A stretch of 64,000 nt of DNA from Patescibacteria group bacterium (GCA_041747555.1 JBGTEY010000009.1:26473-90472); one strand, 5' to 3'; numbered from the stretch's first letter, positions 5,478-26,770 are shown. Numbers and translations: made by a program. The notes: generated from the letters alone by a model not told the origin.

Positions 5478-7034
5478 TTAGTTAGGATACTCGATCCAGT
5501 ATTCACCCTCAGGTGAAGTATCTGCGTCGTAGGCATCGTCTGTGGCACTTCCTCGATATGCTGCTCTACAAAAACCACTCGGGTTGCTGCATCCGCCAAC
5601 GGGGAAATTCTCTGCAACAGCAGGTATACAGTCGAGTCCGACTTCTGTACATCCACCGGTCACGTCGCCGTATCGGTTGGTGTAGAGGTTGAAGGTTACG
5701 AATCCATTTTTTGAGCCATCTTCGTCATATGCTGATCCGTCAAATTCAATAGGGATCTGTACCCAAGTTCTAAAGAGTGCAGCTGCGCTATTGTCATTAC
5801 CACAGGTGAAGAGATTCGTTTCTGGGTCTAGACACCAGAAGTGCATTTTGTCTGTCATGGTAGAACTTGGAGGCATACCGATATTACTCAATGTAATTTC
5901 GCCCGTGCTTTCCCCTTGGAGAAAGTGAATTCCATGTCCAACCCGTAAGCGATTTCTTCCTTCTGGATCGCTTGGTAAGTAATTGTAAACATTGCCTTCA
6001 CTTTGCCATGAGTCTAAGCTATTTTGCCCGACTGAGTGAATTCTGTAGGGAGCAAGTTCAGCTGGTGTATCTGCAAATTCTGCAGGATCACCAGGCATTG
6101 GCAGGTAGTCGCCACGCTGTGGGTAGTTGAGTCTGCCAAAGTCGAGCCAACCACCGCCTCGATAGATTCCGCAATTTTCTTCTGACAAGTCGCCTTGATT
6201 ACAAGCGCGTGCTTCGAGCCATACACTATGAAATCGGGTGAGAGCACCCATCTCGCCACCGATTTGGTGGTATTGGACGCGAGCATCAGTAATGGCATGC
6301 GTACCTAGAAGGAGTGCGCCATTAATACTTTCTTGTGAAGTTTTGTTTTTGTAACCCAGCCATTTGTAGCCTTCATGCTTGCAGGTGTTCTCTGTGCACG
6401 TGCCAGCTGCGTAACTCTCAAAAGAATCAGACGCACCGGCATAGGTTTGCCAAGGATACGATATTTCACCACCTGCCCATTCATAGACTTGGGTGCCAAA
6501 CACATCATCAAAATCATGGGGGTTCATCTTGTGTTCGTGGTCGTAGTGACAACCGAGTTCTTCATTCCATAAACCATGCCAAGAGGTTGCGTCATGGTCA
6601 GCATCTGCGCATTTTGGTGATCCTGCGACTGGTGTTGCACCAGGTTGCGCTGGACTTGCGGATGGTGTGGAACTAGGCGGAGAACTTGGTGTGGCTCCAG
6701 GTTTACCGACTATGATTGGATCTGGCAAGAGCGAAGGGAGTGGTTTTACAGAAGGATCAGTGACTGGAGGACGCAAGTGTTGTCGTTCTACACGAAGCGT
6801 TTCGCTATTCACCACCTCTGGTCTTGATATAGCCCGGATGGTAGATTTTTGTTTTTCTGGTGAGGTTTCTGCCTGTTGCTCGGTGAGAAGTCGTTTGAGC
6901 ATTGTTTCTCGATTACTAGGTTGAGATCTGGAGGAGCTTTGTCCTTGAGCTGCTTGAGGGAGCACAGCAAGAACGATCGCAACCATAAGGAGCAAAGAGA
7001 AGACAGCTTTTATTTTTTGAGGGGGGATTTTCAT
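5478..7034 (-). CDS. Secreted hypothetical protein (signal peptide, Pro/Ser/Thr-rich linker, Cys/Trp-rich domain)
   Basis: N-terminal signal peptide (MKIPPQKIKAVFSLLLMVAIVLAVLPQAAQG), a P/S/T-rich linker (PGATPSSPPSSTPSASPAQPGATPVAGSP), and many Cys and Trp residues. I do not recognise a catalytic motif. Confidence 0.5.
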   Translation of the reverse strand: MKIPPQKIKAVFSLLLMVAIVLAVLPQAAQGQSSSRSQPSNRETMLKRLLTEQQAETSPEKQKSTIRAISRPEVVNSETLRVERQHLRPPVTDPSVKPLPSLLPDPIIVGKPGATPSSPPSSTPSASPAQPGATPVAGSPKCADADHDATSWHGLWNEELGCHYDHEHKMNPHDFDDVFGTQVYEWAGGEISYPWQTYAGASDSFESYAAGTCTENTCKHEGYKWLGYKNKTSQESINGALLLGTHAITDARVQYHQIGGEMGALTRFHSVWLEARACNQGDLSEENCGIYRGGGWLDFGRLNYPQRGDYLPMPGDPAEFADTPAELAPYRIHSVGQNSLDSWQSEGNVYNYLPSDPEGRNRLRVGHGIHFLQGESTGEITLSNIGMPPSSTMTDKMHFWCLDPETNLFTCGNDNSAAALFRTWVQIPIEFDGSAYDEDGSKNGFVTFNLYTNRYGDVTGGCTEVGLDCIPAVAENFPVGGCSNPSGFCRAAYRGSATDDAYDADTSPEGEYWIEYPN

Positions 7035-11747: not shown

Positions 11748-12848
11748 ATGAAATGGCCACTTGTTCGACGATTAGCAATCATTGCCTTCTTTTTGGGATT
11801 GAATATTGTTTTGGGAATGCGTTTTTTGCGAGAAGCCCAGAGTCAGGTGCATCCAATTGTCACGACCATTTTGAGGCAATTTGGAGTGGCAACAAACCAC
11901 CCAGAATGGGTTGAGGAGTTCATTCCCGCTACTGATCTCGAAGAAATTACCATTGATCCACTTGAGGTGGCAGAAAGCGTAAATCGCAGACGAGTACTTG
12001 ATGGAGTCCCCGCGCTTGAGTTTAATACTAAGCTTGCATCTGCCGCGGCGATACTCCTCGATGAGTTGCGAGAGGATGAGTACAATTTAGAAAGAGAGCT
12101 CAATTCGGATTCATTGAAAGACGCACTTGATGAAACTGGGTACGAGTACGAATGGGTGAGCCACAATGCGCTAGTCGGACCGCTCTCAACTCAGGCGATT
12201 ATGACCGGTTGGTTCTCGAGTAACACTCAGACAGAGGCATTGCTCAATCCCGAATTTACCGAACAAGGAATTGCCATCGCTGTGATAAAAAATGACGAAC
12301 TTGGGACCGTTGGCGTCACCGTTCAACTACTTGCGCGGCCAATGGACGAGGGAGTTGTTCCGGCTGCAGGGGGAGCGACACAACCCAACACAGGTTCCCC
12401 AAGTAGTCAGCCAAAACCTACCGCTCCGCCCCCTAACATTGGTGATACAGAAGTACTTCTTGCGCTCAACGCATATCGACAGTCTCACGGTGTTCATCAG
12501 TTGGTTCAGCATGATCAGCTTTGTAGGTATGCAGAAAAAAGAGTTCAAGACTTGATAGCGCACGGTAGTTTAGATAGTCATGCAGGATTTAGGAGCGATT
12601 TTGATGGTGGATACCCGCCACAACTCGAAGGATATCCAGGTGGCACCATCGGTGAAAATTTGGCACACCAATTTTGCAGAAATATGACAACGGGAGATTC
12701 GTTTGTTGCTCAATCTGGCACTGCGCTTATTGAATGGTGTTTTGATTCATCTACTTCTGGGCATCGTGAGGCACAATTGAATCCTCGCTATAACAATGTC
12801 TGCGTTCGACATGGTGAGAATATGTATGTGATTATTTTTGGCGACTAA
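11748..12848 (+). CDS. Membrane-anchored CAP (SCP/PR-1/YkwD-like) domain protein
   Basis: N-terminal TM anchor. C-terminal SGHREAQLNPRYNNVCVRHG matches the CAP S-x-G-H-x-x-N-I-L-x-P motif, and a second CAP-like module lies upstream. Confidence 0.55.
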   Translation: MKWPLVRRLAIIAFFLGLNIVLGMRFLREAQSQVHPIVTTILRQFGVATNHPEWVEEFIPATDLEEITIDPLEVAESVNRRRVLDGVPALEFNTKLASAAAILLDELREDEYNLERELNSDSLKDALDETGYEYEWVSHNALVGPLSTQAIMTGWFSSNTQTEALLNPEFTEQGIAIAVIKNDELGTVGVTVQLLARPMDEGVVPAAGGATQPNTGSPSSQPKPTAPPPNIGDTEVLLALNAYRQSHGVHQLVQHDQLCRYAEKRVQDLIAHGSLDSHAGFRSDFDGGYPPQLEGYPGGTIGENLAHQFCRNMTTGDSFVAQSGTALIEWCFDSSTSGHREAQLNPRYNNVCVRHGENMYVIIFGD

Positions 12849-12866
12849 ATCCGTGTTTTTTTAGAG

Positions 12867-13961
12867 TCAAACTCGAATAAGGCACGATACTTTCCGGAAC
12901 GGAAAGGAAATCGTGAGGGTAAAACAATCGACTAGGGTTCGCAGAAATATGGAAATGTTTTCAGGAAACAGCCAGTATGATTGGTTAATGAAAACACTAG
13001 AGAATTCACTGAGGTTTGATAAATCAGATCCGGCAAAATTTAGACTTCATGTCTTGGAGCACTACTACAAATATGGCTGGAAGCCAACAGTTGAGGCTTT
13101 TAAAATTGGCAAATCAACTTTGTATGATTGGAAACAGGAATACGAAAAATCTGGTAAGAAGTTATTATCGCTTGTGCCCAAAAAGACACGACCAAAACGT
13201 GTCAGACAGATGACTACAGATTGGAGATTAATACAGTTTATTCGTGAATTTAGAGATCAACATGGCAATATTGGAAGAGAAAAGATAAAAATATTTCTCG
13301 ATGAATATGCTGTCGAATTAAGAATTAATTCAATTAGTCATCGCACCATCACAAAAATAATTAAACGAAAAAACTTGTATTTTGATCCACCCAAAAAAGC
13401 AAAGAGGAAGAATAAGTTTAGTCGAGATAGAACAAAAAAATCTCCAAAAGTAACAGCTCCAGGATATGTTGAAATGGACTCAGTTATAGTGTATATCGAC
13501 ACTATTCGACATAATTTTATGTGCTGCATTGATATTTTTACCAAATTTGCTCATGTCAGGAAAGTAAAAACGCTTTCAAGTTTACAAGCAAAAATCACAT
13601 TTGAAGAATTTCAACAATTATCGCCACATAAAATTCACACAGTACAAACTGATAATGGTTCTGAATTCTTCAAAACGTTTCATCAATATCTTGAAGGACA
13701 AGAAATCAAACACCAATTTATTTATCCCAAATCACCCAAAATTAATGGTGTAGTAGAGCGGTTTAATAGAACGATTCAAGAAGAATTTATCAACAGAAAT
13801 GATGAGATCTACTTTGATTTAGAAGCATTTCAAGTTAAACTAATTGAGTACTTAAATTGGTACAACAATAAACGACCACATGCGGCATTAAATTACCAGT
13901 CGCCAATGCAATTTATTAACAACAGTTTTCCGAAAAGTATGTGCCTCTAACAAAACTTTGA
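12867..13961. mobile_element. IS481-family insertion sequence (~1.1 kb), apparently complete
   Basis: Single rve-type transposase ORF flanked by imperfect terminal inverted repeats of about 31 bp: left tcaaactcgaataaggcacgatactttccgg, and right (reverse complement) tcaaagttttgttagaggcacatacttttcgg. The right repeat overlaps the transposase stop codon. Confidence 0.6.
12913..13950 (+). CDS. DDE transposase, IS481 family (N-terminal HTH plus rve integrase core)
   Basis: Catalytic-core motifs HTVQTDNGSEF and PKSPKINGVVERFNRTIQEEF (D, D-x-NG-x-EF, and the conserved E). Confidence 0.8.
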   Translation: MRVKQSTRVRRNMEMFSGNSQYDWLMKTLENSLRFDKSDPAKFRLHVLEHYYKYGWKPTVEAFKIGKSTLYDWKQEYEKSGKKLLSLVPKKTRPKRVRQMTTDWRLIQFIREFRDQHGNIGREKIKIFLDEYAVELRINSISHRTITKIIKRKNLYFDPPKKAKRKNKFSRDRTKKSPKVTAPGYVEMDSVIVYIDTIRHNFMCCIDIFTKFAHVRKVKTLSSLQAKITFEEFQQLSPHKIHTVQTDNGSEFFKTFHQYLEGQEIKHQFIYPKSPKINGVVERFNRTIQEEFINRNDEIYFDLEAFQVKLIEYLNWYNNKRPHAALNYQSPMQFINNSFPKSMCL

Positions 13962-14431
13962 CGACAGCCCCATTTTCTGATACTATAGGCATAAGCAGTT
14001 TTATACTGTCTTCCATGTCTAAAACAACAATCACCGAGCTCGAACAATCTGCAAACACCGTACTTCACCGATGCGCTACTATTTTTCCATTTAAAATTTT
14101 CCCTACAACTATAGAAGTCACACCGACCAAAGTAAGCATCAAAGAAATGATTCTGCCATTTTCATCGACGCTCAATCATATTCTCATTAAAGATCTAGTA
14201 AATGTTCAGGTGGAGACGAATCCGTTTTTTGCTCGACTACAATTTGAAATACGATTCAAAGAGAAGAACCCTAACCCCATTTCATTTCTCGAAAAAGAAA
14301 GCGCTAAAGAATTAGCAAATATCGTAACGGGACTCATTGAAGCTCGTGGCGAAGATGTCGATGTTTCTGATGTTGGTGACCCTGTTGAAAGAGAAAAGTT
14401 GCGATCTGCAGGTGATTCTCAAACGTTATAA
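13958..14431 (+). CDS. Hypothetical protein (possible bacterial PH-like domain)
   Basis: ORF only. Contains a PFFARLQF motif reminiscent of the graspetide leader motif, but the ORF is 157 aa and has no adjacent MdnC-type ligase. Confidence 0.35.
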   Translation: MTTAPFSDTIGISSFILSSMSKTTITELEQSANTVLHRCATIFPFKIFPTTIEVTPTKVSIKEMILPFSSTLNHILIKDLVNVQVETNPFFARLQFEIRFKEKNPNPISFLEKESAKELANIVTGLIEARGEDVDVSDVGDPVEREKLRSAGDSQTL

Positions 14432-14646
14432 GCGTTCCTCAAAAAAATCAACCGTCCGGCTCATTGCTTGGGAAAAAGCGGTTCCGGTTATGTTGTGTCC
14501 ACTAAGTGCAATAAACTCATGGTAAAGCCACACGCTAATACCCAATGATAGTAAAAAAAGAGCAATACTGAATAGATTTCTATAGATAGTCATTGTGATT
14601 TGCTATCCTTAGCGTGAGGTATGCCAGAAAATGAGTAGACCATCAG

Positions 14647-15921
14647 GTGTATACTATAGCGATGCAATCACCAAACGTTGTCGGCTATGTGGGGAAACCT
14701 TATCTTGAGTTTATTCAGTGGCTTCATGAGCATGGTTTTGAAGTTCATTTATTTCATGATGCCAAGCAGCCAATTCGTGGGGAAGACAGCCTAACTGATC
14801 TCATTAGTGCTACCCACTTACTAGATTTTTCTAACCGCGAAATATTCCTAAAACAAGTGGAGTTGCTCACGGTTTCACCTGCTTTTTTTGTAAACGTTTT
14901 TGAAAATGCAGTGGTACCAAAAACATGGCTCACAGAGCATTTTTCATTACCTGGAATCACCCTTGAGGCAGCTGAGCGTGCTACAGATAAAAGTTTGATG
15001 AGACAGGCCTTTGCGACTCAGTGCGCAGAGTACTCTGCGTACTTCAAAACAATTACTAGCTGGGAAGATATTGAATCAGCGCTTGAAAATAAATCATTTC
15101 ATTTCCCGCTGATTCTCAAACCAACTAATCTTTTTAAAAGTTTACTAGTTACCAAGAGCAACACCGCAAAAGAGCTCAAAAAAAACTTTGATGACAGCCT
15201 CGCCATCATTCAATCAATCTATACAAAAGAACATGTCAGTCGAACTCCAAGTTTTGTTCTAGAAGAGTATCTTGATGGTCCATCCTTCTCGCTAGAAGTG
15301 TTTGTTAATGGTGAGGGAAAAATGGTTAGTGCGCCTTCACCAGTTGATTTGGTGATGGGTAAGGATCTTTCAATAGATGACAACTACAATTATTCAAGAA
15401 AGTTGCCAACCACACTCACAACCAATGAACAACAAGAACTACAACAAGCAGCGTTTGCTGGTGTTCGGGCACTTGAACTTTTTAATAGTCCAGCTCACGT
15501 TGAGCTGGTGTATACCAAAAATGGACCCAAAATTATTGAAATTGGCGCTCGAACTGGTGGATACAGAGCAAGAATGTATAAGCTTGCCCACGGTGTCGAC
15601 TTGTTCCAAGCTCAAATAGATGTTGCACAGGGAAAACTCCCCAATTTAGCTCCCCAAGTAGCAAACTACTGCGCCGTGTATGAATTATTTCCACTTTCGA
15701 AGGGGCATTTTCAGGCCATATCGGATATAGACCAAGTCATGCAAAGTAGCACGTTGTATTATTCTGCTGTACCAGCGAAGTTTGGTGAGTTGGTTGGTCC
15801 ATCAAAAGACGGTTTTCGTTTCAGTGGAGTCTTTATTTTTGCGTCAAATGACGAAGTCTTATTTAAGGAAGAAACTAGTTTCTTCGAACAGCATGCCAAA
15901 GTACTTACGTCATCAGTGTAA
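14647..15921 (+). CDS. ATP-grasp domain ligase (L-amino-acid-ligase/PurK-like)
   Basis: FHFPLILKPTNLFKS, EEYLDGPSFSLEVFV, and HVELVYTKNGPKIIEIGARTGG (the ATP-grasp C-terminal signature). Confidence 0.65.
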   Translation: MYTIAMQSPNVVGYVGKPYLEFIQWLHEHGFEVHLFHDAKQPIRGEDSLTDLISATHLLDFSNREIFLKQVELLTVSPAFFVNVFENAVVPKTWLTEHFSLPGITLEAAERATDKSLMRQAFATQCAEYSAYFKTITSWEDIESALENKSFHFPLILKPTNLFKSLLVTKSNTAKELKKNFDDSLAIIQSIYTKEHVSRTPSFVLEEYLDGPSFSLEVFVNGEGKMVSAPSPVDLVMGKDLSIDDNYNYSRKLPTTLTTNEQQELQQAAFAGVRALELFNSPAHVELVYTKNGPKIIEIGARTGGYRARMYKLAHGVDLFQAQIDVAQGKLPNLAPQVANYCAVYELFPLSKGHFQAISDIDQVMQSSTLYYSAVPAKFGELVGPSKDGFRFSGVFIFASNDEVLFKEETSFFEQHAKVLTSSV

Positions 15922-16899
15922 GTGATTAAACGAAAAAATTTCCCGCATTCTGTTTAAATACTTTTTTTCATCTGATAGAAATGGTGGTAGGTACGCAGGC
16001 TCTGCAACATTTGCTTTTAGAGTGTTGATATCAGCAATCGCAATTTTTCCTAAGTATAAAAATTTCACTAACGTTGGATTCAGTGTGATCCACTCAGCAA
16101 CTGCAATCGCTCCACTGAGATAGGTCTGATCCTTAAAAAAACCACCGGGCTGACTTGTATCGGTCAACCCTCTTTTAGCGCGGACACTTAACTCCCATCG
16201 TCTCCCAGGATCAGCAACAAATTTTTCTAAATCAGAAAAAAGTGAAGAAAATGATTTTTCTTTTGCTGTTGCTACCGTGTAGTAGTACAAAGCTGGCGTC
16301 CAGAGATACGGTGCTTTATTTTCTAGTAATGTATGAAATGAAGCTAAGCCTTCTTCTGTTTCACGAAAATCATGCAAATCTGGTGATCTTTCGATCTGTT
16401 GCCAAACGAGCTCATCATTCCGCCATCGGTACAGATGGGTTCCAATTTCATGATGGAGCATGCCTCGCAGCGAAAATGCTCTGTACTCAATAGGTTTTCT
16501 AATTCTTAACTCATATCCAGATTCAACTTTTTCTAATGCTGTTCGAGAAGAATAATCGGTAGAAAGAACTAAATTGACTATATTGTGTACGCCACTTTCA
16601 GTTAAATAGGAATTAATTTGAGATAAAACGCTTTCTTCTGGCAGTACATCACCCTCTGTTTTAAATAAATAAGCTTCTTCAGTGCCAAACTGAGCCAATG
16701 TATCTTCTAAAGTGCGAGTTGCTACTGCAAGATGTGTCGTCTCTAGTAATCCTTGGTACGGCGGTTGATCAAAAGAGATGGGTATACTGTACTTAAATTG
16801 TGGATTATAATTTTGATCAGTAAAAAAACGCTCTTTTTCTTCAAGTATATTTGTGGGGACTAAGTTGCGTAAATAATTTTGAAATATAGCTAAAGACAT
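15913..16899 (-). CDS. DUF1704 / QEGLA-motif protein (putative Tyr/Phe carboxypeptidase-like metallohydrolase)
   Basis: HHEIGTH (HExxxH-like) motif and an EEGLA motif, matching the QEGLA family hallmark. Confidence 0.65.
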   Translation of the reverse strand: MSLAIFQNYLRNLVPTNILEEKERFFTDQNYNPQFKYSIPISFDQPPYQGLLETTHLAVATRTLEDTLAQFGTEEAYLFKTEGDVLPEESVLSQINSYLTESGVHNIVNLVLSTDYSSRTALEKVESGYELRIRKPIEYRAFSLRGMLHHEIGTHLYRWRNDELVWQQIERSPDLHDFRETEEGLASFHTLLENKAPYLWTPALYYYTVATAKEKSFSSLFSDLEKFVADPGRRWELSVRAKRGLTDTSQPGGFFKDQTYLSGAIAVAEWITLNPTLVKFLYLGKIAIADINTLKANVAEPAYLPPFLSDEKKYLNRMREIFSFNHLH

Positions 16900-16928
16900 A
16901 GAGTGATAGTATACTTTATGTTTGATAT

Positions 16929-17963
16929 ATGCGACACCTTTTTAAAAATTTTACCGAAAATATTGAGTCAAATATTATCCTGACCGCAGCAGAACTAAGG
17001 GGGTGGGAAGTAAGTGTTTTACTCAATGGAACAACTCCATTATCTGAAATTCGGAAAAATGAACTTGTGTATCGAGTTCTTGGAGGTCGTTTTTCGGTGA
17101 ATAGTAGTATTTCGACGAGCATCTCAAACAATAAATTTCTAACACAATCTCTTTTGGAGAAAGCTCATGTATATGGCACCAATGCCAAGTTGTATTCTAT
17201 TTCAGAATTAAGTGACCAAGAATGCCAAGCACTTTTAGAAAAATTTTCTAAACTGGTGGTAAAGCCTGTTGATCAAAACAACGGTGTTGGTATAACAGTT
17301 GGTTTAATAGACCTGGCCTCGATCAAACGAGCGATCAATAAAGTAAGTGAGCTTGGTTCTAAACAAGTGTTGATTGAGCAGCATATCGACACCATTAGTG
17401 AGTATCGCATTATTTTGTGGAAAGGTGAAATTATTGATGTTTTGCATCGTATTCCTGCCTTTGTAGTAGGTGATGGTGTAAGTACGATTCAACAACTTAT
17501 TGAACAGAAAAATGCGTATCGTTTTGAGAATTTTGGCACCGTGTTTGAACCAATTATTATTGATGAGGATTTGAGCATGCTTCTTGCAGGCACTGGCAAT
17601 AGTCTTGATTCTGTACTACCCGAGAACGGGTACCTTAGTGTGAAAAACACCTGCAATCTTTCTCAAGGAGGTGAAGTTAAGCGCATCGATCCTTTAAGTG
17701 TTCATCCAGATTACAGAGATATTTTTAAAAGAATATATGAAAAAACTTGGTTAAATTATTGCGGCGCTGATCTCATCACACCAGATATACACGCGGCGCC
17801 AATTCCAGGAAAATCTGCTATCAATGAACTCAATGGAGGGCCGGGGATTACCCTTGCGTTTTATGATGATGTGGCTACGAATCGAATGTATTTTGGTATG
17901 TTTCAGTTGCTTGCAAAGATGGAAAGTGATCCGGTTCAGGTGTTTGGAGCAGGGGGGATCTGA
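16929..17963 (+). CDS. RimK/cyanophycin-synthetase-like ATP-grasp ligase (alpha-L-glutamate-ligase-related)
   Basis: KLVVKPVDQNNGVGI and VVGDGVSTIQQLIEQKN, with cyanophycin-synthetase N-terminal-like ATP-grasp architecture. Confidence 0.65.
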   Translation: MRHLFKNFTENIESNIILTAAELRGWEVSVLLNGTTPLSEIRKNELVYRVLGGRFSVNSSISTSISNNKFLTQSLLEKAHVYGTNAKLYSISELSDQECQALLEKFSKLVVKPVDQNNGVGITVGLIDLASIKRAINKVSELGSKQVLIEQHIDTISEYRIILWKGEIIDVLHRIPAFVVGDGVSTIQQLIEQKNAYRFENFGTVFEPIIIDEDLSMLLAGTGNSLDSVLPENGYLSVKNTCNLSQGGEVKRIDPLSVHPDYRDIFKRIYEKTWLNYCGADLITPDIHAAPIPGKSAINELNGGPGITLAFYDDVATNRMYFGMFQLLAKMESDPVQVFGAGGI

Positions 17964-17975
17964 GTGCTGTGAAAT

Positions 17976-17992
17976 CGGAAGCGGTGGGATTC
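17976..17992. repeat. attL: 17-bp exact direct repeat (CGGAAGCGGTGGGATTC), the displaced 3' end of tRNA-Ser(GCT)
   Basis: Identical 17-mer at about 35716..35732 inside the 3' end of tRNA-Ser(GCT). It lies 12 bp downstream of the ATP-grasp stop codon. Confidence 0.65.
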
Positions 17993-18203
17993 ACCCGACT
18001 CAGGCACAATGCGGAGCACCTGGGTCTGGAACCCAACTGTCCTTATAACACTGTCTCATTCCAGAAGGCAACTCCAGGCTAATTGTATCAAAAATGAGAC
18101 AAATGGGACACTATAAAAAAGGAGTGTCTTAGAACCAGATGATATGGTTTGATATCTTTATGGCTGGCATCCAGGCTAATCAATGCGATACAATTAGGAA
18201 AGT

Positions 18204-19229
18204 ATGAGCACATCCTATAAACAAATTTCTTTGCTTCCCTGGTTAGAACTTGTAGATATTCAGATTGGCAATGCTATTTTTTGGAAATATGATACCTCGG
18301 TCATAAGTGACGGTGACACTAAAGCATATTTGGATGAGTATGTGAGGTGTTACGTCGATAAGCACCAGAAACCAGTAAAAACGCTCAGTATTGCTTCATA
18401 CAAGTATAAGAACTACTTTGAACCACTGACTGCTGAAGAGTATCAGGAACTGAATTTTGCCCGCAACATCCTGTGTTTCCTATGTGTCGGCGAACAATCA
18501 AGAATTGCTTTGGCAAACAAAAATAGCAGCATTGGCCCCCCAAGTAGTGATATCTTTGACATGGTTTCTCAGAACTTTATACCCGGAACGAAAGATATTG
18601 CAGTTAAATCTGGAAGCATGACGAGCGGAGGGTGGACGTTGGACGAAATTCATTTTCAGGAGCCTTGGTCTACTGGTGGATTTTTCAAAAATCTAAACAG
18701 ACATGTACTGGAAGCAATTAATAAGCTTCTTACTCTTCCAGAACACGAAGATTTTAAAAATAGACTATTGCGATCTAGCGAATGGTTTCGACTAGCCCAT
18801 CTAGAAAATGGGTCAATATCTCCATTCTTTAGAGCAGTAATGATGGCAACTGCGTTTGAAATTATTTTTGACATTCCTAATGTTAGAGACAAGGCAGGCT
18901 TTCTCTCGGATAAAATTGATGAGACGATTGCTCGAGACAGTTTCATTCAAGCTACTAGGCAATATGGAAAGAATAACGAGAAAAGTAAGACAAGAAGTGT
19001 TGCCGCTTGGTGGGGATGGGATTTCTATAAACTAAGAAATTCAGTTGTCCATGGAGATAATATCCCCATGAGCGATTTGATTTATTCAGACTGGATTACT
19101 CACACTATTGTCGCAGATATGATGTTTTACGCTTACGTTGTTTACTTATTGCAAGAGGCTGGTTGTATGACTGACAAATATAAGGCGCCAGAATTTTCCG
19201 AGGTGTTTAAACTGTTTAAGTGGTTATGA
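18204..19229 (+). CDS. Hypothetical protein, possible Abi-like/HEPN-type abortive infection protein
   Basis: C-terminal LRNSVVHGDN fits the HEPN R-x4-6-H motif seen in the Abi_2 family. The assignment is weak. Confidence 0.4.
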   Translation: MSTSYKQISLLPWLELVDIQIGNAIFWKYDTSVISDGDTKAYLDEYVRCYVDKHQKPVKTLSIASYKYKNYFEPLTAEEYQELNFARNILCFLCVGEQSRIALANKNSSIGPPSSDIFDMVSQNFIPGTKDIAVKSGSMTSGGWTLDEIHFQEPWSTGGFFKNLNRHVLEAINKLLTLPEHEDFKNRLLRSSEWFRLAHLENGSISPFFRAVMMATAFEIIFDIPNVRDKAGFLSDKIDETIARDSFIQATRQYGKNNEKSKTRSVAAWWGWDFYKLRNSVVHGDNIPMSDLIYSDWITHTIVADMMFYAYVVYLLQEAGCMTDKYKAPEFSEVFKLFKWL

Positions 19230-19763
19230 ACCAAATCCGAGAGTTATGCTTCCGCCAGCTTTAGCACCTCTAAAATCGATATTTGCCATGATTCCTTCTC
19301 TTTTAATATCAACGTAGCGAAATTCTGCAATATTATCCGTCGGGTTAATAATCGGTTGATCGGCGAGAACTTGAGTTAGCGTAGCCATAAAGACTAACCA
19401 ATTACTATCTTTTTTACAAAAATCGTTTGGTAAACCATACTCTTCAAGTAGCTTTGTTAACTCCTCTCGAAATTCTGGCAATACAAGAAATTCAATGTTC
19501 CCGTCTTTAGGATAGGTATCTATAGATTCATCGATCTTTTTCATTATCTCCTTTATGGGAGCTGTAATATGTCGTTTGTCTGTGTGAAGTACCCAATCAG
19601 CATGAAAGCGTACCAAGGAGTCTTTGTTTTGACGATTCTGTTCTCTCTCTCGATCAAGAAGTTTCCTTAACTCAACCATCAAGTAAACAACTTCAAACTC
19701 TTCCTTTATTTGAGGCCGTTCACTAAGAAATTTATTCAACTTTTCAACTATTTGTATCTTCAT
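19224..19763 (-). CDS. Hypothetical protein (last gene of a minus-strand operon on the island)
   Basis: ORF only; the spacing to the upstream HNH gene is about 12 bp. Confidence 0.45.
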   Translation of the reverse strand: MKIQIVEKLNKFLSERPQIKEEFEVVYLMVELRKLLDREREQNRQNKDSLVRFHADWVLHTDKRHITAPIKEIMKKIDESIDTYPKDGNIEFLVLPEFREELTKLLEEYGLPNDFCKKDSNWLVFMATLTQVLADQPIINPTDNIAEFRYVDIKREGIMANIDFRGAKAGGSITLGFGS

Positions 19764-19774
19764 AAAATTTGTAG

Positions 19775-20386
19775 TTAATACATTTCAACCATAAACATTA
19801 ACCCATCATAAAAAACATATACCCATACACTTTTTGCTCCCATATCCTTAACAAACATTCTCCACATCCTAAATACACCATTCCCTTTCTCGACATAAAA
19901 GAATTTCTGATACAACATGTCCACAATCTGCTGATTAGGGATTATGTTATTAATTTTAAATTTTGCATGAGAATAATCTATCTCTGGATTAAAATGTTTG
20001 GTAAAACCCTTAGTAAGCCTGACAAGATATTCTTTTGTTTTTTTGATTGGATAAGTCATGCCTGTTTGTTGAACTTTTATTCCATTAATTTCAGATTGAA
20101 GAGGAACGAGGCTCTTCACGGTAGCCCGTTTTAACTTGGGACTTCTTTTGAAAGAAGACCTCATTACTTTATTGTCCCAAATCCATTCACCAGATTTTGA
20201 CCTGTTAATTACGGATGATGTAAATACTCTAAATGACTCATCAATTAAACTGAATTTTTCGTTACACCCCCTACAACACCATATAGTAATGAGGTCTGTT
20301 GGCTTTGGAAAAGGAAAAAGATTCTTAGGAGGAATATGATCTTTTGTAAGATTTTCAGTTGAGCCGCATAAATAACAACTATTCAT
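19775..20386 (-). CDS. HNH endonuclease family protein
   Basis: CYLCGS...TKDHIPPK...WCCRGCN, i.e. C-x2-C, DH-x2-P, and C-x2-C-N. Confidence 0.55.
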   Translation of the reverse strand: MNSCYLCGSTENLTKDHIPPKNLFPFPKPTDLITIWCCRGCNEKFSLIDESFRVFTSSVINRSKSGEWIWDNKVMRSSFKRSPKLKRATVKSLVPLQSEINGIKVQQTGMTYPIKKTKEYLVRLTKGFTKHFNPEIDYSHAKFKINNIIPNQQIVDMLYQKFFYVEKGNGVFRMWRMFVKDMGAKSVWVYVFYDGLMFMVEMY

Positions 20387-20392
20387 AAAAAT

Positions 20393-21691
20393 TCAGCCAA
20401 TGCTTTCCCTAAGCTTCTTATAACCTTCAAACCCATCTTGGAACTTATCTGTGTAGTCAAAAGTTGTAAATGTGTAGTCCTGTACAGTACCGGTAATTAC
20501 CATTTGACGTATTTTTCTGAACCCTAGCTCCGAAAGAGCATTCTTAACTTGTTCATCGGTTGTGAATCCCCATACTGCCAAAAGAGTTCTACTGATTCTA
20601 ATCTTTGTAAGAGTGTTGTCTTTTAATCGAAATCTGGCCTCTGAATAATCTCCAGCCGTTATTATATCCCAGCTATCGAATAATACCCCGTCATTTTGTA
20701 GTAAAACTGGTGGGTGGTATGCACCGATCTCATTTGCTACAAGCTCAAAGAATGCTCCTGAGGGGACTCTTCGTTGTGTCAGTTCTCTTCTGGCAAAAAA
20801 CCTGTTTCCATTAATATCTGAGAATTCTACAAAAACGTTCAGATCTCTTATTTCTTCATTGAAAATTTGAGTAGTAGAGATAGGAAATTCAACCTCTTTT
20901 TCCTTTTGTGGATCAAGAATAAAAGGTGTTATTCCAGATCTCCACTCGAATGCAAATCCTCGTATGCCCCAAACGATATCGACCGCATTGTGAGCACTTA
21001 CGTTTTTAATGGTAAAGTAAGCAAAATGACCGTTTGGGCCACCACTGGCTCCGATATTTGGAGTAATAAAAAGTGTGGGAACTGATTGTTCCTTTTTCTC
21101 CTCAACGAACTCCACGCTTGATTGAACACCGTTCGTAGAGGCCTTTACAAGATAACCGTGCTTTGTGGTGATACTTACAACCTTCTCAATCAACTCTTGC
21201 GGTGCTTTGTCCTCAGGGTCAATGCGAATTTCGCCAGTTTGACCAACAATAAAATGGACATGCTCTCCAGATTTTTCCGAACGGTCGCCAATAATGATAT
21301 GAAAATCTTTCCCTTGATCAACGGTTCTTACCCATAAATTATCGTTTTTCAGATTCTTAATTATCCGCTCTCTCTGATCAACACTCTTGTCGTCGATTAC
21401 ATACACATCCATTTCTTCAACCCTGCGACTAATGAATGACAACATGTCTACAAGACAATTTTCAATGAGATCCTTTCTTTTTCCTGCACGCGCCCACTTT
21501 TGAAACTCTTTAAATGAGTTTTCTAATCCTTCACCCACGTCCGAAGAAAAATTCCTAAAAATCGCAATTATTCTATTGATCTTTTCAATCTGTTTGATGT
21601 CGTTTGGACTTTTAATGAAGGTGTCCATTTCAAGAGAGGAATATATCCCCCTTATCTCAGCTACATATTTTGGTTTATCCACTGCTTTCAT
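20393..21691 (-). CDS. Hypothetical protein (432 aa)
   Basis: ORF only; tightly spaced with the flanking genes. Confidence 0.45.
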   Translation of the reverse strand: MKAVDKPKYVAEIRGIYSSLEMDTFIKSPNDIKQIEKINRIIAIFRNFSSDVGEGLENSFKEFQKWARAGKRKDLIENCLVDMLSFISRRVEEMDVYVIDDKSVDQRERIIKNLKNDNLWVRTVDQGKDFHIIIGDRSEKSGEHVHFIVGQTGEIRIDPEDKAPQELIEKVVSITTKHGYLVKASTNGVQSSVEFVEEKKEQSVPTLFITPNIGASGGPNGHFAYFTIKNVSAHNAVDIVWGIRGFAFEWRSGITPFILDPQKEKEVEFPISTTQIFNEEIRDLNVFVEFSDINGNRFFARRELTQRRVPSGAFFELVANEIGAYHPPVLLQNDGVLFDSWDIITAGDYSEARFRLKDNTLTKIRISRTLLAVWGFTTDEQVKNALSELGFRKIRQMVITGTVQDYTFTTFDYTDKFQDGFEGYKKLRESIG

Positions 21692-21693
21692 AT

Positions 21694-21882
21694 TTAATTA
21701 TTTCCTTTAAGCAAATTTAATACTTCTTCCTTTTTATATTTTCTATCCATTCTCGCTCCAAACCGAACCGCTTTAAGAATGCCTTTTTTATCCCACTGCC
21801 TGAGAGTGTTGGCGTGAACTTTGAGAAGTTCACACGTTTCCTTCATGCCTAAAAGTTCTGGTATTTTTTCGTCGGTTTTCAT
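21694..21882 (-). CDS. Excisionase/MerR-type HTH DNA-binding protein
   Basis: 62-aa HTH protein (TCELLKVHANTLRQWDKKGILKAVRFG), resembling the Xis excisionase family. Confidence 0.55.
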   Translation of the reverse strand: MKTDEKIPELLGMKETCELLKVHANTLRQWDKKGILKAVRFGARMDRKYKKEEVLNLLKGNN

Positions 21883-21939
21883 TGTGTTATGACTTACTAT
21901 TTGTTACCATTAGCTTACTATAAATACCCATAAATTTCA

Positions 21940-22734
21940 ATGGAAGAAAAATACATTCTAAAAACCAAATCACATGAGGACTGGCGTAACTATCTATTAG
22001 TAAACAGCTTCTTCTTTGCAGTCCTTATCCAACATTTCAGAAAAAGACTTGAGATTCCCCCGGACGGGATTGGGTCTGCAACTGAGATCATTTTATGGGA
22101 GCGTCATAATATGCAGCAGCTTGCAGACACTTTACGCAACAAATCAAAAGGCGGAACAAAATCAGTAACACGACAGATGGAGGAATATTATGGATTAGAT
22201 TTCGTTATTCGACAAAAGTTGTTCGAGCCAATATATGAGTTAATTGAAAAGTTTCACAATTTCAATCTGAATTTTGAACTACTAAAAGTATACACATTAG
22301 GTCATACAAACATGTCGTTTCCTGGAAGTACTAAGGTTTTACTTGTAACTTCTCCGAGCGATCCAATTACTGAAACAGGAGTATATATAAAGTACACTCC
22401 TGAATTAACAAATAAAGAGCTAGCAAATTTGAAAAAACAGGCTGCGGAGGGCTACCAAACTCTTTCGAGAACTAAAGGATTTAAGATTAAGGGGAATGAA
22501 AAAAGTCGAAAAGCCCCTAAAAAAGATAGCTTAGAAGTATATTTAACTATTGAGAAATATCTTATTGAACAAAAAATATCAAAGCCTAATTCATTTAATA
22601 TTAATCCTATCTTTGAGATTGTCGCTGAAAAGTTAAAGACTAAGCCAGGTACCGTCAGAAGAAAATATTATTCAATAATTAATAACTTTCAACTCCCATC
22701 ACTCCATGAAGTAAGTCTTATTCCAACAAATTGA
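21940..22734 (+). CDS. Hypothetical protein
   Basis: ORF only. Confidence 0.4.
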   Translation: MEEKYILKTKSHEDWRNYLLVNSFFFAVLIQHFRKRLEIPPDGIGSATEIILWERHNMQQLADTLRNKSKGGTKSVTRQMEEYYGLDFVIRQKLFEPIYELIEKFHNFNLNFELLKVYTLGHTNMSFPGSTKVLLVTSPSDPITETGVYIKYTPELTNKELANLKKQAAEGYQTLSRTKGFKIKGNEKSRKAPKKDSLEVYLTIEKYLIEQKISKPNSFNINPIFEIVAEKLKTKPGTVRRKYYSIINNFQLPSLHEVSLIPTN

Positions 22735-22794
22735 CTCAACTTCTTGGAATACCTCGACCGTGACGCAACAAATACTCCTTGAGATAATGTTGGT

Positions 22795-24087
22795 ATGCAA
22801 AACATATCAATTCAAACAGTCGAAGTTCCAGTCAAAGACTTATTTCCAGCAGATTATAACCCAAGATATTGGGATGAAAAAGCTATCCGTGATCTTACAA
22901 AAAGTATTCAAGAGAATGGCTTTGTAATACCTATTCTGGCAAACAGTAATAAATCTCGATATGGGACTGTAATAGCAGGTCACTTTCGTCTCAAGATTGC
23001 AAAAGATTTAAAGTATAAAACTGTACCTGTAAATTTCATCGACATTAGCGACGTAGAGAAAGAAAAAAAGTTAAACCTAACATTAAATCGTGTCTCTGGA
23101 GATTGGGATTATGAACTCTTAAAAAGCTTTGATATTGAGTTGCTTTTGGGATCTGGATTTAACGACCTTGATTTCGGTCATATTTTCGATGACGCACTTG
23201 GAATTGAAGATGATGATTTCGATGCTGAAAAAGAAGCTGCTAAAATCAAGACTCCACGAACAAAACTAGGTGACCTGATCTATCTTGGAGGACTTAACTC
23301 CCATCGGCTCATATGTGGTGATAATAATAATCCGGAAGTCGTAGTAAGACTCATGGGTTCAGATAAAGCCAATATTCTACACTTCGATCCCATCTACAAT
23401 ATCGACCTTAATTACAACAAAGGAGTTGGTAATAAAGGGACGTATGGAAGTCGAAAGGTAAACGATAAGAAACCAGATGATGAATACAGAGCCTTTCTTA
23501 AAACTGTATTTCAAAATGGCTTAACTCATACCCATCCAGACTGTCATGTTTTTTCCTTTTGTGATCAGTCATATATTTGGATGTTGCAAGAATTGTTTGC
23601 CGAACTTGGAATAGATAAGAAGCGTGTGTGTCTGTGGATCAAAAATAATGCCAATATGACACCCCAAGTAGCTTTCAATAAATGCTTTGAGCCCTGCATA
23701 TACGGAACTAGAGGTAATCCATATCTATCTCATATTCACAACCTGAATGAAGTTCTGAATAAAGAAGTTGGTACTGGCAACAGATTAACTGACGACATCA
23801 TGGATCTTTTTGATATTTGGCTTGCAAAGCGTGTTGCTGGGCAAGACTATGAACATCCTACACAAAAGCCTCCTACCTTGTATGAAAAAGCCTTCCGCCG
23901 TTGTACCAAGGCTGGTGATATTATTCTTGATCTTTTTGGCGGTTCAGGAAGTCAGCTAATAGCGGCTGAACAACTGAAACGACGAGCCTTCTTATGTGAA
24001 ATAGATCCCGTCTTCTGTGATGTGATCGTCGCTAGATATCAGCAACTGACTGGAAAGGAGGCCACGTATGTTAATCCAAAAGAATGA
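22795..24087 (+). CDS. ParB-like nuclease domain fused to a DNA methyltransferase (N6-adenine/N4-cytosine)
   Basis: N-terminal ParB/Srx-like region (DLFPADYNPRYWDEKAIRDLTKSIQENGFVIPIL). C-terminal MTase SAM-binding region DLFGGSGSQLIAAEQLKRRAFLCEIDP. Confidence 0.65.
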   Translation: MQNISIQTVEVPVKDLFPADYNPRYWDEKAIRDLTKSIQENGFVIPILANSNKSRYGTVIAGHFRLKIAKDLKYKTVPVNFIDISDVEKEKKLNLTLNRVSGDWDYELLKSFDIELLLGSGFNDLDFGHIFDDALGIEDDDFDAEKEAAKIKTPRTKLGDLIYLGGLNSHRLICGDNNNPEVVVRLMGSDKANILHFDPIYNIDLNYNKGVGNKGTYGSRKVNDKKPDDEYRAFLKTVFQNGLTHTHPDCHVFSFCDQSYIWMLQELFAELGIDKKRVCLWIKNNANMTPQVAFNKCFEPCIYGTRGNPYLSHIHNLNEVLNKEVGTGNRLTDDIMDLFDIWLAKRVAGQDYEHPTQKPPTLYEKAFRRCTKAGDIILDLFGGSGSQLIAAEQLKRRAFLCEIDPVFCDVIVARYQQLTGKEATYVNPKE

Positions 24088-24811
24088 CATTTTTGAGTTA
24101 GGATCACACTATCTTGCCTGCGGTGATGCGCTAGACACAAAAATTGTGAACCGTCTTCTTGGTGATAGGAAAGTTTCTCTAGTTTTGACTGATATGCCGT
24201 ACGGCGTTGGATATGTAGAGAACAAGTTTGAATTTAATCACATCAGTAAGTCGAAAATTATCACGAACGACCACGAACAGACTGACCAAGAATATCGAGT
24301 GTTTACTAAAGGTTGGCTCAATTTGATAAAGCCATACTTGGCCGAAAAGAATAGCTACTATCTTTTTAATTCAGATAAGATGCTTTTTGCCATGCGGGAG
24401 GGGCTGGTTGAGGAAGGATTTAAGTTTGCCCAACTTCTTATCTGGGTTAAAAATCATGTTGTCCTTGGGAGGCTTAATTATCTTCCACAACATGAATTAA
24501 TTGCGTATGGCTGGTATGGCAGACATGCATTCCAGAAATCACAAGATAAAAGCGTCTTGTTTTATCCAAAACCAAACAAGAGCCCACTACACCCAACAAT
24601 GAAACCAGTCGGGTTGCTTCGCAACCTTATCCTAAACAGCTCAAAAACCGATGACTGGGTATATGACCCGTTTCTGGGTTCAGGATCTACTTTGGTGGCG
24701 TGTGAGCAAACCAAGCGAAGGTGTTTGGGGATAGAGCTTGATCCCGAATACTGCCAAGTCATTATTGATCGTTTTGAAAAAGTTACCAATAAAAAAGCTA
24801 AAAAACTATGA
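24068..24811 (+). CDS. DNA methyltransferase (N6-adenine/N4-cytosine, DPPY-type)
   Basis: DMPY motif (LVLTDMPYGVGY) and SAM motif DPFLGSGSTLVACEQTKRRCLGIELDP. Confidence 0.7.
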   Translation: MLIQKNDIFELGSHYLACGDALDTKIVNRLLGDRKVSLVLTDMPYGVGYVENKFEFNHISKSKIITNDHEQTDQEYRVFTKGWLNLIKPYLAEKNSYYLFNSDKMLFAMREGLVEEGFKFAQLLIWVKNHVVLGRLNYLPQHELIAYGWYGRHAFQKSQDKSVLFYPKPNKSPLHPTMKPVGLLRNLILNSSKTDDWVYDPFLGSGSTLVACEQTKRRCLGIELDPEYCQVIIDRFEKVTNKKAKKL

Positions 24812-25245
24812 ATAACAAAGATAACCAAATTACAGTCAGAGATCGTATAAAAGTTGAACAGGATCTATTGGTTGAGCAATTGAAGAAAACTCCAATCGTC
24901 CAAGTAGCCTGTGAGAAATGTGGCGTGGGTCGCTCGACCTACTATCGTTGGAGAAAAGAAGATGCGGAATTTACTCAACAGAGTGACCAGGCATTACTCG
25001 ATGGAAGCCTGTTGGTTAACGATATGGCAGAGTCACAACTGATGAGTGCTATTAAAGATAAAAACATGACGGCTATTATTTTTTGGTTAAAACACCATCA
25101 TCCTGCGTACCTTACTAAGGTCGAGATTACTTCAAGTCAAATGAAAGACCCGATGCTAACAGCAGAACAAGAAGACTCAGTCAGGAAAGCTTTGCTCATG
25201 GCAGGAATCATTAAACCAGAGGTGCAAAAAATAGAAAATGAATAA
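24808..25245 (+). CDS. Putative terminase small subunit (HTH)
   Basis: HTH segment (ACEKCGVGRSTYYRWRKED) directly upstream of the terminase large subunit, with a 4-bp overlap. Confidence 0.45.
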   Translation: MNNKDNQITVRDRIKVEQDLLVEQLKKTPIVQVACEKCGVGRSTYYRWRKEDAEFTQQSDQALLDGSLLVNDMAESQLMSAIKDKNMTAIIFWLKHHHPAYLTKVEITSSQMKDPMLTAEQEDSVRKALLMAGIIKPEVQKIENE

Positions 25246-26770
25246 CACTATATTAGATCAATTATTTGCAGATCAGTCTGTTCGGAGAGAATCAGCAAGA
25301 CAAAGCCATATTCTCTTCTTTCATATGTATTTTAGTGAGTATGTAAAATATCCAACTGCCGACTTTCAAAAGACGATTTTTAAACTTACACAGAAAAGTA
25401 ACTGTCCAGAAGTATTCATTATGGCTTTTCGTAGTTCAGGTAAAACAACCATCCTAAGTAACTCGTACCCAATCTGGGCAATTATTGGTGAGCAACAGAA
25501 AAAGTTTGTTGTTATCGTGAGTCAAACACAAAGCCAGTGTAGGCAAATCCTTAACAATATAAGGAGAGAATTAGAATCAAACGATCTTCTCAAAAAGGAT
25601 TTTGGACCATTTACTGATGGGACTGGCGAGTGGAGTTCAAGCTCACTTGAACTAACTAAATATGGTGCAAGAATTACTGCTGTATCTACTGGGGAAAGTA
25701 TACGTGGACTCAGGCATGGCCCTCATCGACCAGACCTGATAATTCTGGATGACGTAGAGGATATCAATTCGGTCAAGACATTAGATAACAGACAAAGCAT
25801 TTATCGTTGGTTTACCAGTGAAATTAAACCCCTTGGTGATATTGGAACGAGAATTGTCGTGGTTGGGAATCTCCTCCATGAGGATTCATTAATGATGAAG
25901 CTTAAAGAATATGACAATAATATTGGGCAAAATAGTGTATTTATTGAATTCCCACTTGTTGATGAGGATGGTGTAATTCTTTGGCCGCAAAAGTTTACAC
26001 AAGAAAGAATTGATGAACTGAGACGCGAAACAATTGATAGTGGTTCATTTGAGCGAGAGTACTTGCTTCAGATTGTTCCAGATGATCAGCAAATCATACA
26101 AAGATCGTGGATCAAGAAGTACAGTATTATTCTTCCAGCGAGAGAGATTCCAAGACCGAGAATGATTTTGATTGCAATTGATCTTGCTATCAAAAAGGGT
26201 GATGGGCGAGATTTTACCTCGATGGTTCCAATGTATGTAACAGGATATGATAAAACTCTCCAAGCATATGTTCTGCCTAACATAATCAATAAACAACTAG
26301 ACTTTCCTGAAACCGTTGAAGCAATTAAAAAATTACATGCGGAATTGAAAGAAACCTTTGGCATCATTCCTAGGATTTTTGTAGAAAGTGTTGGATATCA
26401 GGATGCGGTGGTACAACAATTATTTTTGGTAGAGAAACTCATGGCAGAACCAGTATCAGTTGGGCACCTCGATAAAGCTTCTCGATTGAGGCTTGTTTCT
26501 CCATATGTGCAACTTGGAAAGGTATTCTTCCCTGAATTGGGAGCCGAGCCATTGATAAATCAGTTGCTCAACATTCATTCCACTAAACATGATGATCTGG
26601 CAGATGCCTTTACTATTGGATTAAGCAAAATTATTGAAAGTGATCAGCCTTATTATTCAACCAGGATTAAGACTGAGGATAAGCCACATTATGTACTAAA
26701 TGAGATTACTGGACAATGGCACGATCTATCAAAACCATTCACAGCTGGTATGTTAGATATGAAGTATTAG
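25238..26770 (+). CDS. Phage terminase large subunit
   Basis: Walker A motif (AFRSSGKTTIL), Walker B motif (DLIILDDVED), and a C-terminal RNaseH-like nuclease half. Confidence 0.75.
   Translation: MNNTILDQLFADQSVRRESARQSHILFFHMYFSEYVKYPTADFQKTIFKLTQKSNCPEVFIMAFRSSGKTTILSNSYPIWAIIGEQQKKFVVIVSQTQSQCRQILNNIRRELESNDLLKKDFGPFTDGTGEWSSSSLELTKYGARITAVSTGESIRGLRHGPHRPDLIILDDVEDINSVKTLDNRQSIYRWFTSEIKPLGDIGTRIVVVGNLLHEDSLMMKLKEYDNNIGQNSVFIEFPLVDEDGVILWPQKFTQERIDELRRETIDSGSFEREYLLQIVPDDQQIIQRSWIKKYSIILPAREIPRPRMILIAIDLAIKKGDGRDFTSMVPMYVTGYDKTLQAYVLPNIINKQLDFPETVEAIKKLHAELKETFGIIPRIFVESVGYQDAVVQQLFLVEKLMAEPVSVGHLDKASRLRLVSPYVQLGKVFFPELGAEPLINQLLNIHSTKHDDLADAFTIGLSKIIESDQPYYSTRIKTEDKPHYVLNEITGQWHDLSKPFTAGMLDMKY

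Follow-up and report, generated by a model that had tools for sequence, protein, structure and literature searches.

A conserved set of two ATP-grasp ligase genes and a MATCAP-type metallocarboxypeptidase homologue in Patescibacteria, with a possible role in C-terminal extension and trimming of peptides

A 64,000-nucleotide (nt) stretch of the genome of a Patescibacteria group bacterium (GCA_041747555.1, JBGTEY010000009.1:26473-90472), referred to here as the window, carries a small gene cluster that a preliminary description had presented as a putative peptide-tailing module. The four open reading frames (ORFs) given there are all present, namely 13958-14431 (plus strand, 157 amino acids, aa), 14647-15921 (plus, 424 aa), 15913-16899 (minus, 328 aa) and 16929-17963 (plus, 344 aa), as are the motifs picked out in them, HHEIGTH and EEGLA in the 328-aa protein and PFFARLQF in the 157-aa ORF. 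The 424-aa and 344-aa products are ATP-grasp ligases, called BacD-like and CphA-G-like below after their nearest relatives, and the 328-aa product is a homologue of the MATCAP metallocarboxypeptidases. The strand of the MATCAP gene, on which the earlier account was silent, is minus; the gene is divergent from the CphA-G-like ligase gene, with 29 nt between the two starts (16900-16928), and convergent with the BacD-like ligase gene, the 3' ends overlapping by 9 nt (15913-15921). The conserved unit is confined to these three genes (14647-17963), because the flanks differ wherever it occurs and neither the 157-aa ORF nor the downstream 341-aa ORF has a counterpart in any related locus. A scan of 12800-18400 against Rfam gave no match to a riboswitch or other RNA element at E ≤ 1, and predicted promoters and terminators in the module region were no more numerous than in shuffled controls.

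The middle gene (15913-16899, minus) encodes a predicted MATCAP-type zinc carboxypeptidase homologue of the gluzincin class with its catalytic motifs intact. Its score of 55.0 bits against Pfam PF08014 (now MATCAP, formerly DUF1704; gathering threshold 27) bears out the DUF1704 assignment made at the outset, whereas the QEGLA label attached to it has to be given up: the TIGR02421 equivalog model gives 50.9 bits against a cut-off of 338.65, and the protein reads TEEGLA in place of the literal QEGLA. The structure of human MATCAP1 (KIAA0895L; 7z5g) is matched over the full length (query residues 13-327 against 7-324, E 8.9e-50), and the homologue database search returned 1414 proteins, nearly all from Patescibacteria, with vertebrate MATCAP2 among them at 37-38% identity (E about 1e-53). 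The combination of HExxxH and EEG motifs defines gluzincin carboxypeptidases (PMC10499314). HHEIGTH (aa 149-155, nt 16435-16455, minus) aligns with the HExxxH zinc-binding and catalytic motif (H150, E151, H155), and EEGLA (aa 182-186, nt 16342-16356, minus) with the EEG motif, which would supply the putative third metal ligand (E182/E183). An alignment of 22 Patescibacteria and two animal (MATCAP2) sequences contains 34 invariant columns, including H150, H155, E182, E183 and G184 and the basic residues R158, K242, R243 and K285; the catalytic E151 is kept in at least 90% of its sequences. No transmembrane segment was predicted by a hydrophobicity check of the 328-aa protein.

For the animal homologues MATCAP1/2 (TMCP1/2), carboxypeptidase and deglutamylase activity has been characterised: they take off C-terminal residues singly and in sequence, and polyglutamate chains are shortened by them. 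Glutamates of the HExxxH motif in TMCP1 (E281) and of TMCP2 (E364) are essential, and an EEG motif has been described (PMC10499314). Binding of acidic tails by MATCAP enzymes is electrostatic, and 12-residue free peptides are also accepted by TMCP1 (PMC12612596). The earlier description as biochemically uncharacterised thus holds for bacterial members of the family and not for the animal enzymes (PMC10499314). Only two strongly conserved columns distinguish the window-clade peptidases from the canonical MATCAP proteins of other Patescibacteria, so the substrate class is probably the same.

Both flanking ligases carry the ATP-grasp motifs. The product of 14647-15921 (plus; public gene call from the ATG at 14662, 419 aa, the length of P0301) matches PF13535 (ATP-grasp_4) with 64.9 bits against a cut-off of 27, and its nearest characterised relatives are the L-amino-acid ligases BacD (3wnz, 3e-15) and BL00235 (3vot, 5e-13), in agreement with its earlier designation as L-amino-acid-ligase-like. 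It reaches 67.3 bits (8e-19) against the BacD equivalog NF053745, for which the cut-off is 850, and has no match to the RimK family model TIGR00768. For the product of 16929-17963 (plus), which had been called RimK/cyanophycin-synthetase-like, the second half of that name stands: its nearest kin are the G domain of cyanophycin synthetase (TIGR02068, 137.9 bits against a cut-off of 850, model positions 203-450 of 862 only; CphA structure 7lg5, 1.6e-23), the C-terminal domain of GshAB (120.5 bits) and N-acetylglutaminylglutamine synthetase (TIGR03103, 107.7 bits), the latter two scores also lying below cut-off. The resemblance to RimK is weak (TIGR00768, 25 bits against 143.4). D-Ala-D-Ala ligase (Ddl) models score only 17-22 bits with the module ligases, neither of which matches PF03133 (TTL family) or, at E ≤ 0.01, the graspetide maturase models TIGR04184, TIGR04185 and TIGR04187. 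Because the scores fall far short of every equivalog cut-off, only the general chemistry can be read from these proteins, that is, the predicted activation of a carboxylate as acyl-phosphate followed by attack of an amino-acid amine.

The three genes form a conserved module and not a chance assembly, because three further lineages, in which the flanks differ, have the same arrangement. Order and orientation of the CphA-G-like ligase, MATCAP and BacD-like ligase genes are identical in loci L042/L043, L044 and L045, at 49-81% amino acid identity. The closest relatives of the peptidase (P0002, 70%; P0003, 58%; P0004, 49%) each lie within this same arrangement; the orthologues of the BacD-like ligase are 78% (L042), 57% (L044) and 60% identical (L045, a partial gene at a contig end), and those of the CphA-G-like ligase 81% (L042), 69% (L045) and 59% (L044). 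Also retained are a short divergent spacer, which measures 29 nt in L042 and 55-59 nt in both L044 and L045, and convergent ends that abut or overlap (by 9 nt in L042 and 14 nt in L045); the neighbours differ in every case (GreA and a heavy-metal ATPase, an SpoU methylase, and others). The co-occurrence in other genomes that the preliminary description had called for is found both in these triads and at loci where the ligases stand as accessory genes beside a canonical MATCAP operon (L009, L010, L050, L053, L054). Four triad lineages, including that of the window, were found in the searched collections. A scan of Joint Genome Institute (JGI) metagenomes gave only 37-40% relatives on short contigs. 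Carriage of the module by phage was rejected, since no MATCAP relatives were found on IMG/VR viral contigs. There is good support for a joint function of the three genes.

The wider family places the module in a larger context. Forty loci were obtained by scanning GTDB species representatives, and their ORFs were clustered and the clusters annotated. The canonical operon, which occurs throughout the Patescibacteria, runs from a 7TM_transglut-like, seven-transmembrane (7TM) protein, which matches the 7TM part of RloB, through an ATPgrasp_ST/TIGR02291-like (RloC-like) ligase (TIGR02291/PF14397, 225 bits) to MATCAP, usually followed by TruB and MnmA. Of 38 Patescibacteria loci, 35 have the RloC-like ligase next to MATCAP, and at least two of the remaining three begin at a contig edge; the RloB-like protein is present in 34 of 38 related loci. 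Directly downstream of MATCAP, 17 of 37 loci carry one to three extra ATP-grasp genes, which include RimK-type genes, GshB-like genes and both types found in the window. A co-directional BacD-like/CphA-G-like pair stands beside the canonical three genes in L054 and L053 (the latter from the same metagenome-assembled genome as L016), where the BacD-like ligases are 51-52% relatives of that in the window, and single copies of the window ligase types occur at L009, L010, L022, L026 and L050. The link of these ligase types to the MATCAP operon is frequent and not obligatory. In our reading, the module of the window derives from the canonical system by reduction and rearrangement and is rare. Two related families of 260-300 aa with no Pfam match also recur within the accessory ligase arrays beside MATCAP (L009:11950-13635, L010:8997-9893, L033:2780-3553, L037:626-1408, L053:8248-9171, L054:4815-5726) and may be further components of the system. 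Among other search matches, two gammaproteobacterial QEGLA-type proteins of 635 aa (L040:6672-8579, L041:1947-3854) carry the HExxxH/QEGLA domain C-terminally, behind about 440 aa of uncharacterised N-terminal sequence, and are followed by an ATP-grasp gene; fusions of RimK-like and retropepsin domains were also seen.

The 7TM proteins of the canonical operons provide a lead on the substrate. All 36 of them (34 from canonical loci together with those of L050 and L054) end in a tail of the form RF(R/K)xx(x)-EE with two to five terminal glutamates; these EE-tailed proteins lie outside the window (L002-L038, L050, L054; for example L002:5792-6715). Their hydropathy profile consists of a signal or anchor segment followed by seven helices, and the tail is predicted to be cytoplasmic on the basis of this topology, on the same side of the membrane as the ligases and MATCAP, which are likewise predicted to be cytoplasmic. 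The EE tail mirrors two known substrates: ribosomal protein S6, which also ends in EE and is lengthened by RimK and cut back by RimB, and alpha-tubulin (EE[Y]), on which TTL and MATCAP oppose each other. We regard the tail, as a lead only, as a candidate substrate of the system. Two proteobacterial RloB proteins (L063, L064), whose partner is a secreted retropepsin and not MATCAP, share the preceding motif and lack the EE end; the EE tail as a general property of RloB was rejected on these two examples. For the RloABC system, the physiological substrate has been reported as not known, and the protease cleaves polyglutamate in vitro (PMC11957051).

We propose that the three genes constitute a writer-eraser set in which the two ligases extend a peptide at its C-terminus and the MATCAP protein trims it, a reading in which our confidence is evenly divided. 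Each of the two ATP-grasp writers would activate a carboxylate as acyl-phosphate and join to it the amine of an amino acid, and a short peptide would in this way be built or lengthened at its C-terminal end; the eraser, a MATCAP-type zinc carboxypeptidase, would strip C-terminal residues one at a time. Ligases and peptidase would act on one shared molecule, for which the cytoplasmic EE tail of the 7TM protein is the most concrete candidate in the system as a whole. The observed basis consists of homology, intact catalytic motifs, conserved synteny, the family-wide association with ligases and the EE tails. Precedents exist for the antagonism: RimK and RimB act as opposing ligase and peptidase on S6, and a mutant of the protease RloA is rescued by deletion of rloB/rloC (PMC11957051). 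The fusions of RimK-like and retropepsin domains mentioned above count as a further precedent. Of the original notion of a peptide-tailing module, the functional linkage of two ATP-grasp ligases with a DUF1704/MATCAP metallopeptidase is thereby retained, with tailing and de-tailing as the best hypothesis, and its QEGLA and leader-peptide parts are dropped.

Several observations weigh against the writer-eraser proposal. When searched with profiles of the 7TM and RloC-like families, the 64 kb of the window give no match. The TIGR02291-type partner expected in the preliminary description is absent there, and so is the 7TM protein that bears the candidate tail. Among window ORFs of at least 50 aa, none ends in two acidic residues except a 57-aa frame at 5308-5481, and no such acidic-tailed ORF is found in L042, L044 or L045. 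The MATCAP gene lies on the strand opposite to the ligase genes and is hence never co-transcribed with them here, orthologues of the CphA-G-like ligase at about 50% identity have no MATCAP gene within 8 kb (L046, L048), and a 38% relative of the BacD-like ligase stands among other ATP-grasp genes, again with no MATCAP (L055). The nearest characterised relatives of both ligases use free amino acids or small peptides and not proteins, and no assay of a bacterial MATCAP homologue was found in the searched literature. An extension of the proposal would see in Patescibacteria a bacterial equivalent of the tubulin tail code, in which the EE tail of the 7TM protein is extended with Glu and other residues by several ATP-grasp ligases and trimmed by MATCAP, the window module is a stand-alone, trans-acting cassette of two ligases that differ in specificity and their own diverged eraser, and animal MATCAP is of this bacterial descent; taken as a whole, we consider this scheme unlikely.

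The main rival to the writer-eraser reading is that the genes serve the metabolism of a free peptide and that no protein is modified: the BacD-like ligase would make a dipeptide from free amino acids, the GshB/CphA-G-like ligase would lengthen this dipeptide into a tripeptide or short oligomer, for instance an antimetabolite, a compatible solute or a thiol-like cofactor, and MATCAP would degrade, recycle, mature or detoxify the product. The characterised kin of the ligases speak for this possibility, BacD and BL00235 being dipeptide synthetases and GshAB, N-acetylglutaminylglutamine synthetase and CphA standing nearest to the second ligase, as do the cleavage of free 12-residue peptides by TMCP1 (PMC12612596), the lack of an acceptor protein encoded nearby and the existence of ATP-grasp arrays with no MATCAP (L055). 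However, scores so far below the equivalog cut-offs do not allow substrates to be transferred from those families, the family-wide partners are an EE-tailed 7TM protein and a RimK-related ligase, the triad is not accompanied by a conserved exporter gene or further biosynthetic gene, and the characterised MATCAP enzymes work on protein tails (PMC10499314); we hold the free-peptide explanation to be possible, if doubtful. Turnover of a cyanophycin-like or other poly-amino-acid storage polymer, with Asp or Glu polymerised by the CphA-G-like ligase and released by the peptidase, would account for cyanophycin synthetases being the best NCBIfam and PDB matches of 16929-17963, and RimK also makes poly-alpha-glutamate (PMC11957051); it is nevertheless very unlikely, since the likeness covers the G domain only (203-450 of 862; 138 against 850 bits), the N and Mur-ligase-like M domains are absent, and no cyanophycinase-type gene is present. 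Scarcely to be expected, too, is an editing of peptidoglycan stem peptides in the manner of VanA/VanX/VanY, where the ligases would make an alternative dipeptide or branch and the peptidase would trim precursors: a separate and better Ddl-like gene lies at 4365-5462, the Ddl models reach only 17-22 bits with the module ligases, and the triad has no conserved mur, van or fem genes beside it. These points stand against the distant relationship of both ligases to D-Ala-D-Ala ligases, the proximity of the canonical operon to envelope genes in some relatives, and the cell morphology and ampicillin sensitivity phenotypes of the Pseudomonas rlo genes (PMC11957051). Mere adjacency of three functionally unconnected genes could be argued from the use of different strands and the position between two mobile elements, yet it is made extremely unlikely by three further lineages that keep the identical arrangement at 49-81% identity between other flanking genes, and by a linkage of MATCAP to ATP-grasp genes that is family-wide.

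The 157-aa ORF upstream had raised a further alternative, a graspetide system, that is, one producing a ribosomally synthesised and post-translationally modified peptide (RiPP), with this ORF as the precursor recognised through a leader motif. PFFARLQF (aa 89-96, nt 14222-14245) does resemble the microviridin leader PFFARFL, and a maturase-like ATP-grasp gene is present elsewhere in the window (37656-38651). An exhaustive HMMER search with the 157-aa ORF, in contrast, returned 740 relatives (E ≤ 0.001) that form a family of proteins of about 140 aa. Of PFFA, the family alignment keeps the second F alone as an invariant residue, and conservation does not extend to the R. The homologue alignments begin at M20, so the likely start is at nt 14015 in place of the TTG at 13958, giving a protein of 138 aa (14015-14431, plus). 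Its AlphaFold model (predicted local distance difference test score, pLDDT, 89.8) has seven strands and a C-terminal helix, with PFFARLQF forming a beta-strand; the top structural matches are all PH domains, bacterial ones included, and bPH_2 is weakly touched by two of 28 family members. The other loci that carry the module, and the loci related to it, all lack the ORF, the module ligases match no maturase model, and the module contains neither an MvdC/MvdD/SAV_5884-type maturase nor a leader-core precursor. We have rejected a leader role for the ORF on the grounds of its PH-like fold, the strand position of the motif and its absence from module loci, and we give the graspetide explanation virtually no credence. 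As a separate observation, the locus at 37522-38651 is itself of graspetide type: its ATP-grasp protein (37656-38651) scores 158 bits with TIGR04187, 149 with MvdD and 135 with MvdC, all below cut-off, and directly upstream lies a 42-aa ORF (37522-37650) with the C-terminal sequence ...KETSGPTNPEWADPDND, a plausible precursor peptide. Together with the Ddl-like gene (4365-5462) and the two module ligases (14647-15921, 16929-17963), this makes four detectable ATP-grasp ORFs in the window; Pfam, NCBIfam and iterative profile searches of the 64 kb gave no fifth, five having been counted previously.

The module lies between two mobile elements. At the left border, an IS481/IS3-like DDE transposase (12913-13950, plus) matches rve_3/rve and scores 159 bits with the IS481 model, under its cut-off; the frame of the PH-like protein begins 8 nt after it, and a search for inverted repeats around the insertion sequence, with the PH-like gene as possible cargo, found only weak arms of 74-80%. 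In an independent Logan assembly, contig L001 ends just upstream of the BacD-like ligase gene, a break that is consistent with a repeated element at that point. On the right, an attL-like 17-nt sequence, CGGAAGCGGTGGGATTC (17976-17992, plus), is an exact direct repeat of 35716-35732, the 3' end of tRNA-Ser(GCT) (35715-35800), with a chance expectation of about 0.001 for such matches, and a large serine recombinase is encoded at 34151-35464. Repeat and recombinase delimit an integrative island of about 17.7 kb (17976 to 35715); the module ends 12 nt before the left repeat and is for this reason chromosomal and not island cargo. The cargo comprises an HNH protein, a ParB-methylase, a second methylase, terminase-like genes, SHOCT, Fur, a ParA-like protein, a pyridoxal phosphate (PLP) decarboxylase, a PALP-rhodanese protein, a class-V aminotransferase and CobW. 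Further along, downstream of tRNA-Ser(GGA) (37177-37261), translated frames in 37121-37460 repeat tRNA-like and flanking segments (RRWWDSNPRG / RRWWDLPSSG), with HHLRIDKNLALAKY occurring twice, an indication that the 3' fragment of a tRNA has been duplicated and that a further old integration site may lie here. A 1401-aa ORF (39236-43441, minus) has no Pfam match and contains in its N-terminal half at least three repeats of about 90-100 residues (...GNDV...DDEPT/SVESV...).

Reversible addition of amino acids to C-termini is well studied on tubulin, where TTL/TTLL enzymes are opposed by MATCAP, VASH and CCP; in bacteria, to our knowledge, it is essentially known only for S6 through RimK and RimB. 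The present locus is significant in that close bacterial homologues of the human detyrosinase and deglutamylase MATCAP are firmly coupled to ATP-grasp ligases. A concrete candidate substrate is the poly-Glu C-terminus conserved in the operon 7TM protein, by which the function of bacterial DUF1704/MATCAP proteins becomes directly testable, and the two unusual ligases of the window could reveal new amino-acid specificities. The function of the poorly understood RloBC-type systems, on which osmotic tolerance, antibiotic sensitivity and biofilm formation depend in Pseudomonas, becomes testable in like manner. The findings also bear on the origin of the eukaryotic enzymes that act on tubulin tails.

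The logic of ligase and peptidase is already known from RimK/RimB, RloC/RloA and TTL/MATCAP, as is the DUF1704 annotation; what is new is this variant of three genes, in which neither ligase is of the RimK family and a 7TM partner is absent. The peptidase resembles animal MATCAP1/KIAA0895L and MATCAP2/KIAA0895 (TMCP1/2) over its full length, with 38% identity to vertebrate MATCAP2 and the HExxxH, EEG and basic residues in common, and the animal TTL/TTLL and MATCAP enzymes follow the same logic of ATP-grasp ligases adding to an acidic C-terminus and MATCAP removing from it. The differences are that tubulin is not the target here, that the window ligases do not belong to the TTL family, that the long N-terminal extension of the animal proteins is missing from the bacterial one, and that the bacterial activity is only predicted. 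In a neighbour-joining tree (50 bootstraps), the window clade and animal MATCAP are each monophyletic, and the animal pair (P0104, P0119) is nested in the Patescibacteria radiation, though this rough tree does not fix the place of either group inside that radiation. The distribution of MATCAP among eukaryotes is patchy (PMC10499314). Horizontal transfer is suggested by this nesting and patchiness together with the 37-38% identity of Patescibacteria proteins to vertebrate MATCAP2 as against about 27% to gammaproteobacterial QEGLA-type proteins. Proteobacterial QEGLA proteins (TIGR02421) share PF08014 and the HExxxH...EGLA motifs, and have an ATP-grasp neighbour in the two gammaproteobacterial loci retrieved, but that identity of about 27% extends over half the length only, and the window protein is much closer to animal MATCAP.

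Among bacterial systems, RloABC of Pseudomonas aeruginosa and the other systems combining TIGR02291 with an inactive-transglutaminase 7TM protein share with the canonical Patescibacteria operon an RloB-like 7TM protein, a TIGR02291/PF14397 ligase (225 bits) and a coupled peptidase. The peptidase in Patescibacteria is, however, a predicted cytoplasmic MATCAP gluzincin and not a secreted retropepsin, the 7TM protein has no transglutaminase-like domain and ends in EE, as the two proteobacterial RloB proteins do not, and the window module has neither an RloB-like nor an RloC-like gene. RimK and RimB on S6 present the same principle, in which an ATP-grasp ligase adds to a protein with an EE end and the addition is undone by a peptidase of its own (PMC11957051), whereas the window ligases lie outside the RimK family (25 against 143 bits), the peptidase has a different fold and a link to S6 was not found. 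The best structural and sequence relatives of the module ligases are BacD/YwfE and BL00235 on the one hand and the CphA G domain and GshAB C-terminal domain on the other, from which the second ligase differs in having neither the N and M domains of CphA nor the GshA domain, with scores far under the cut-offs.

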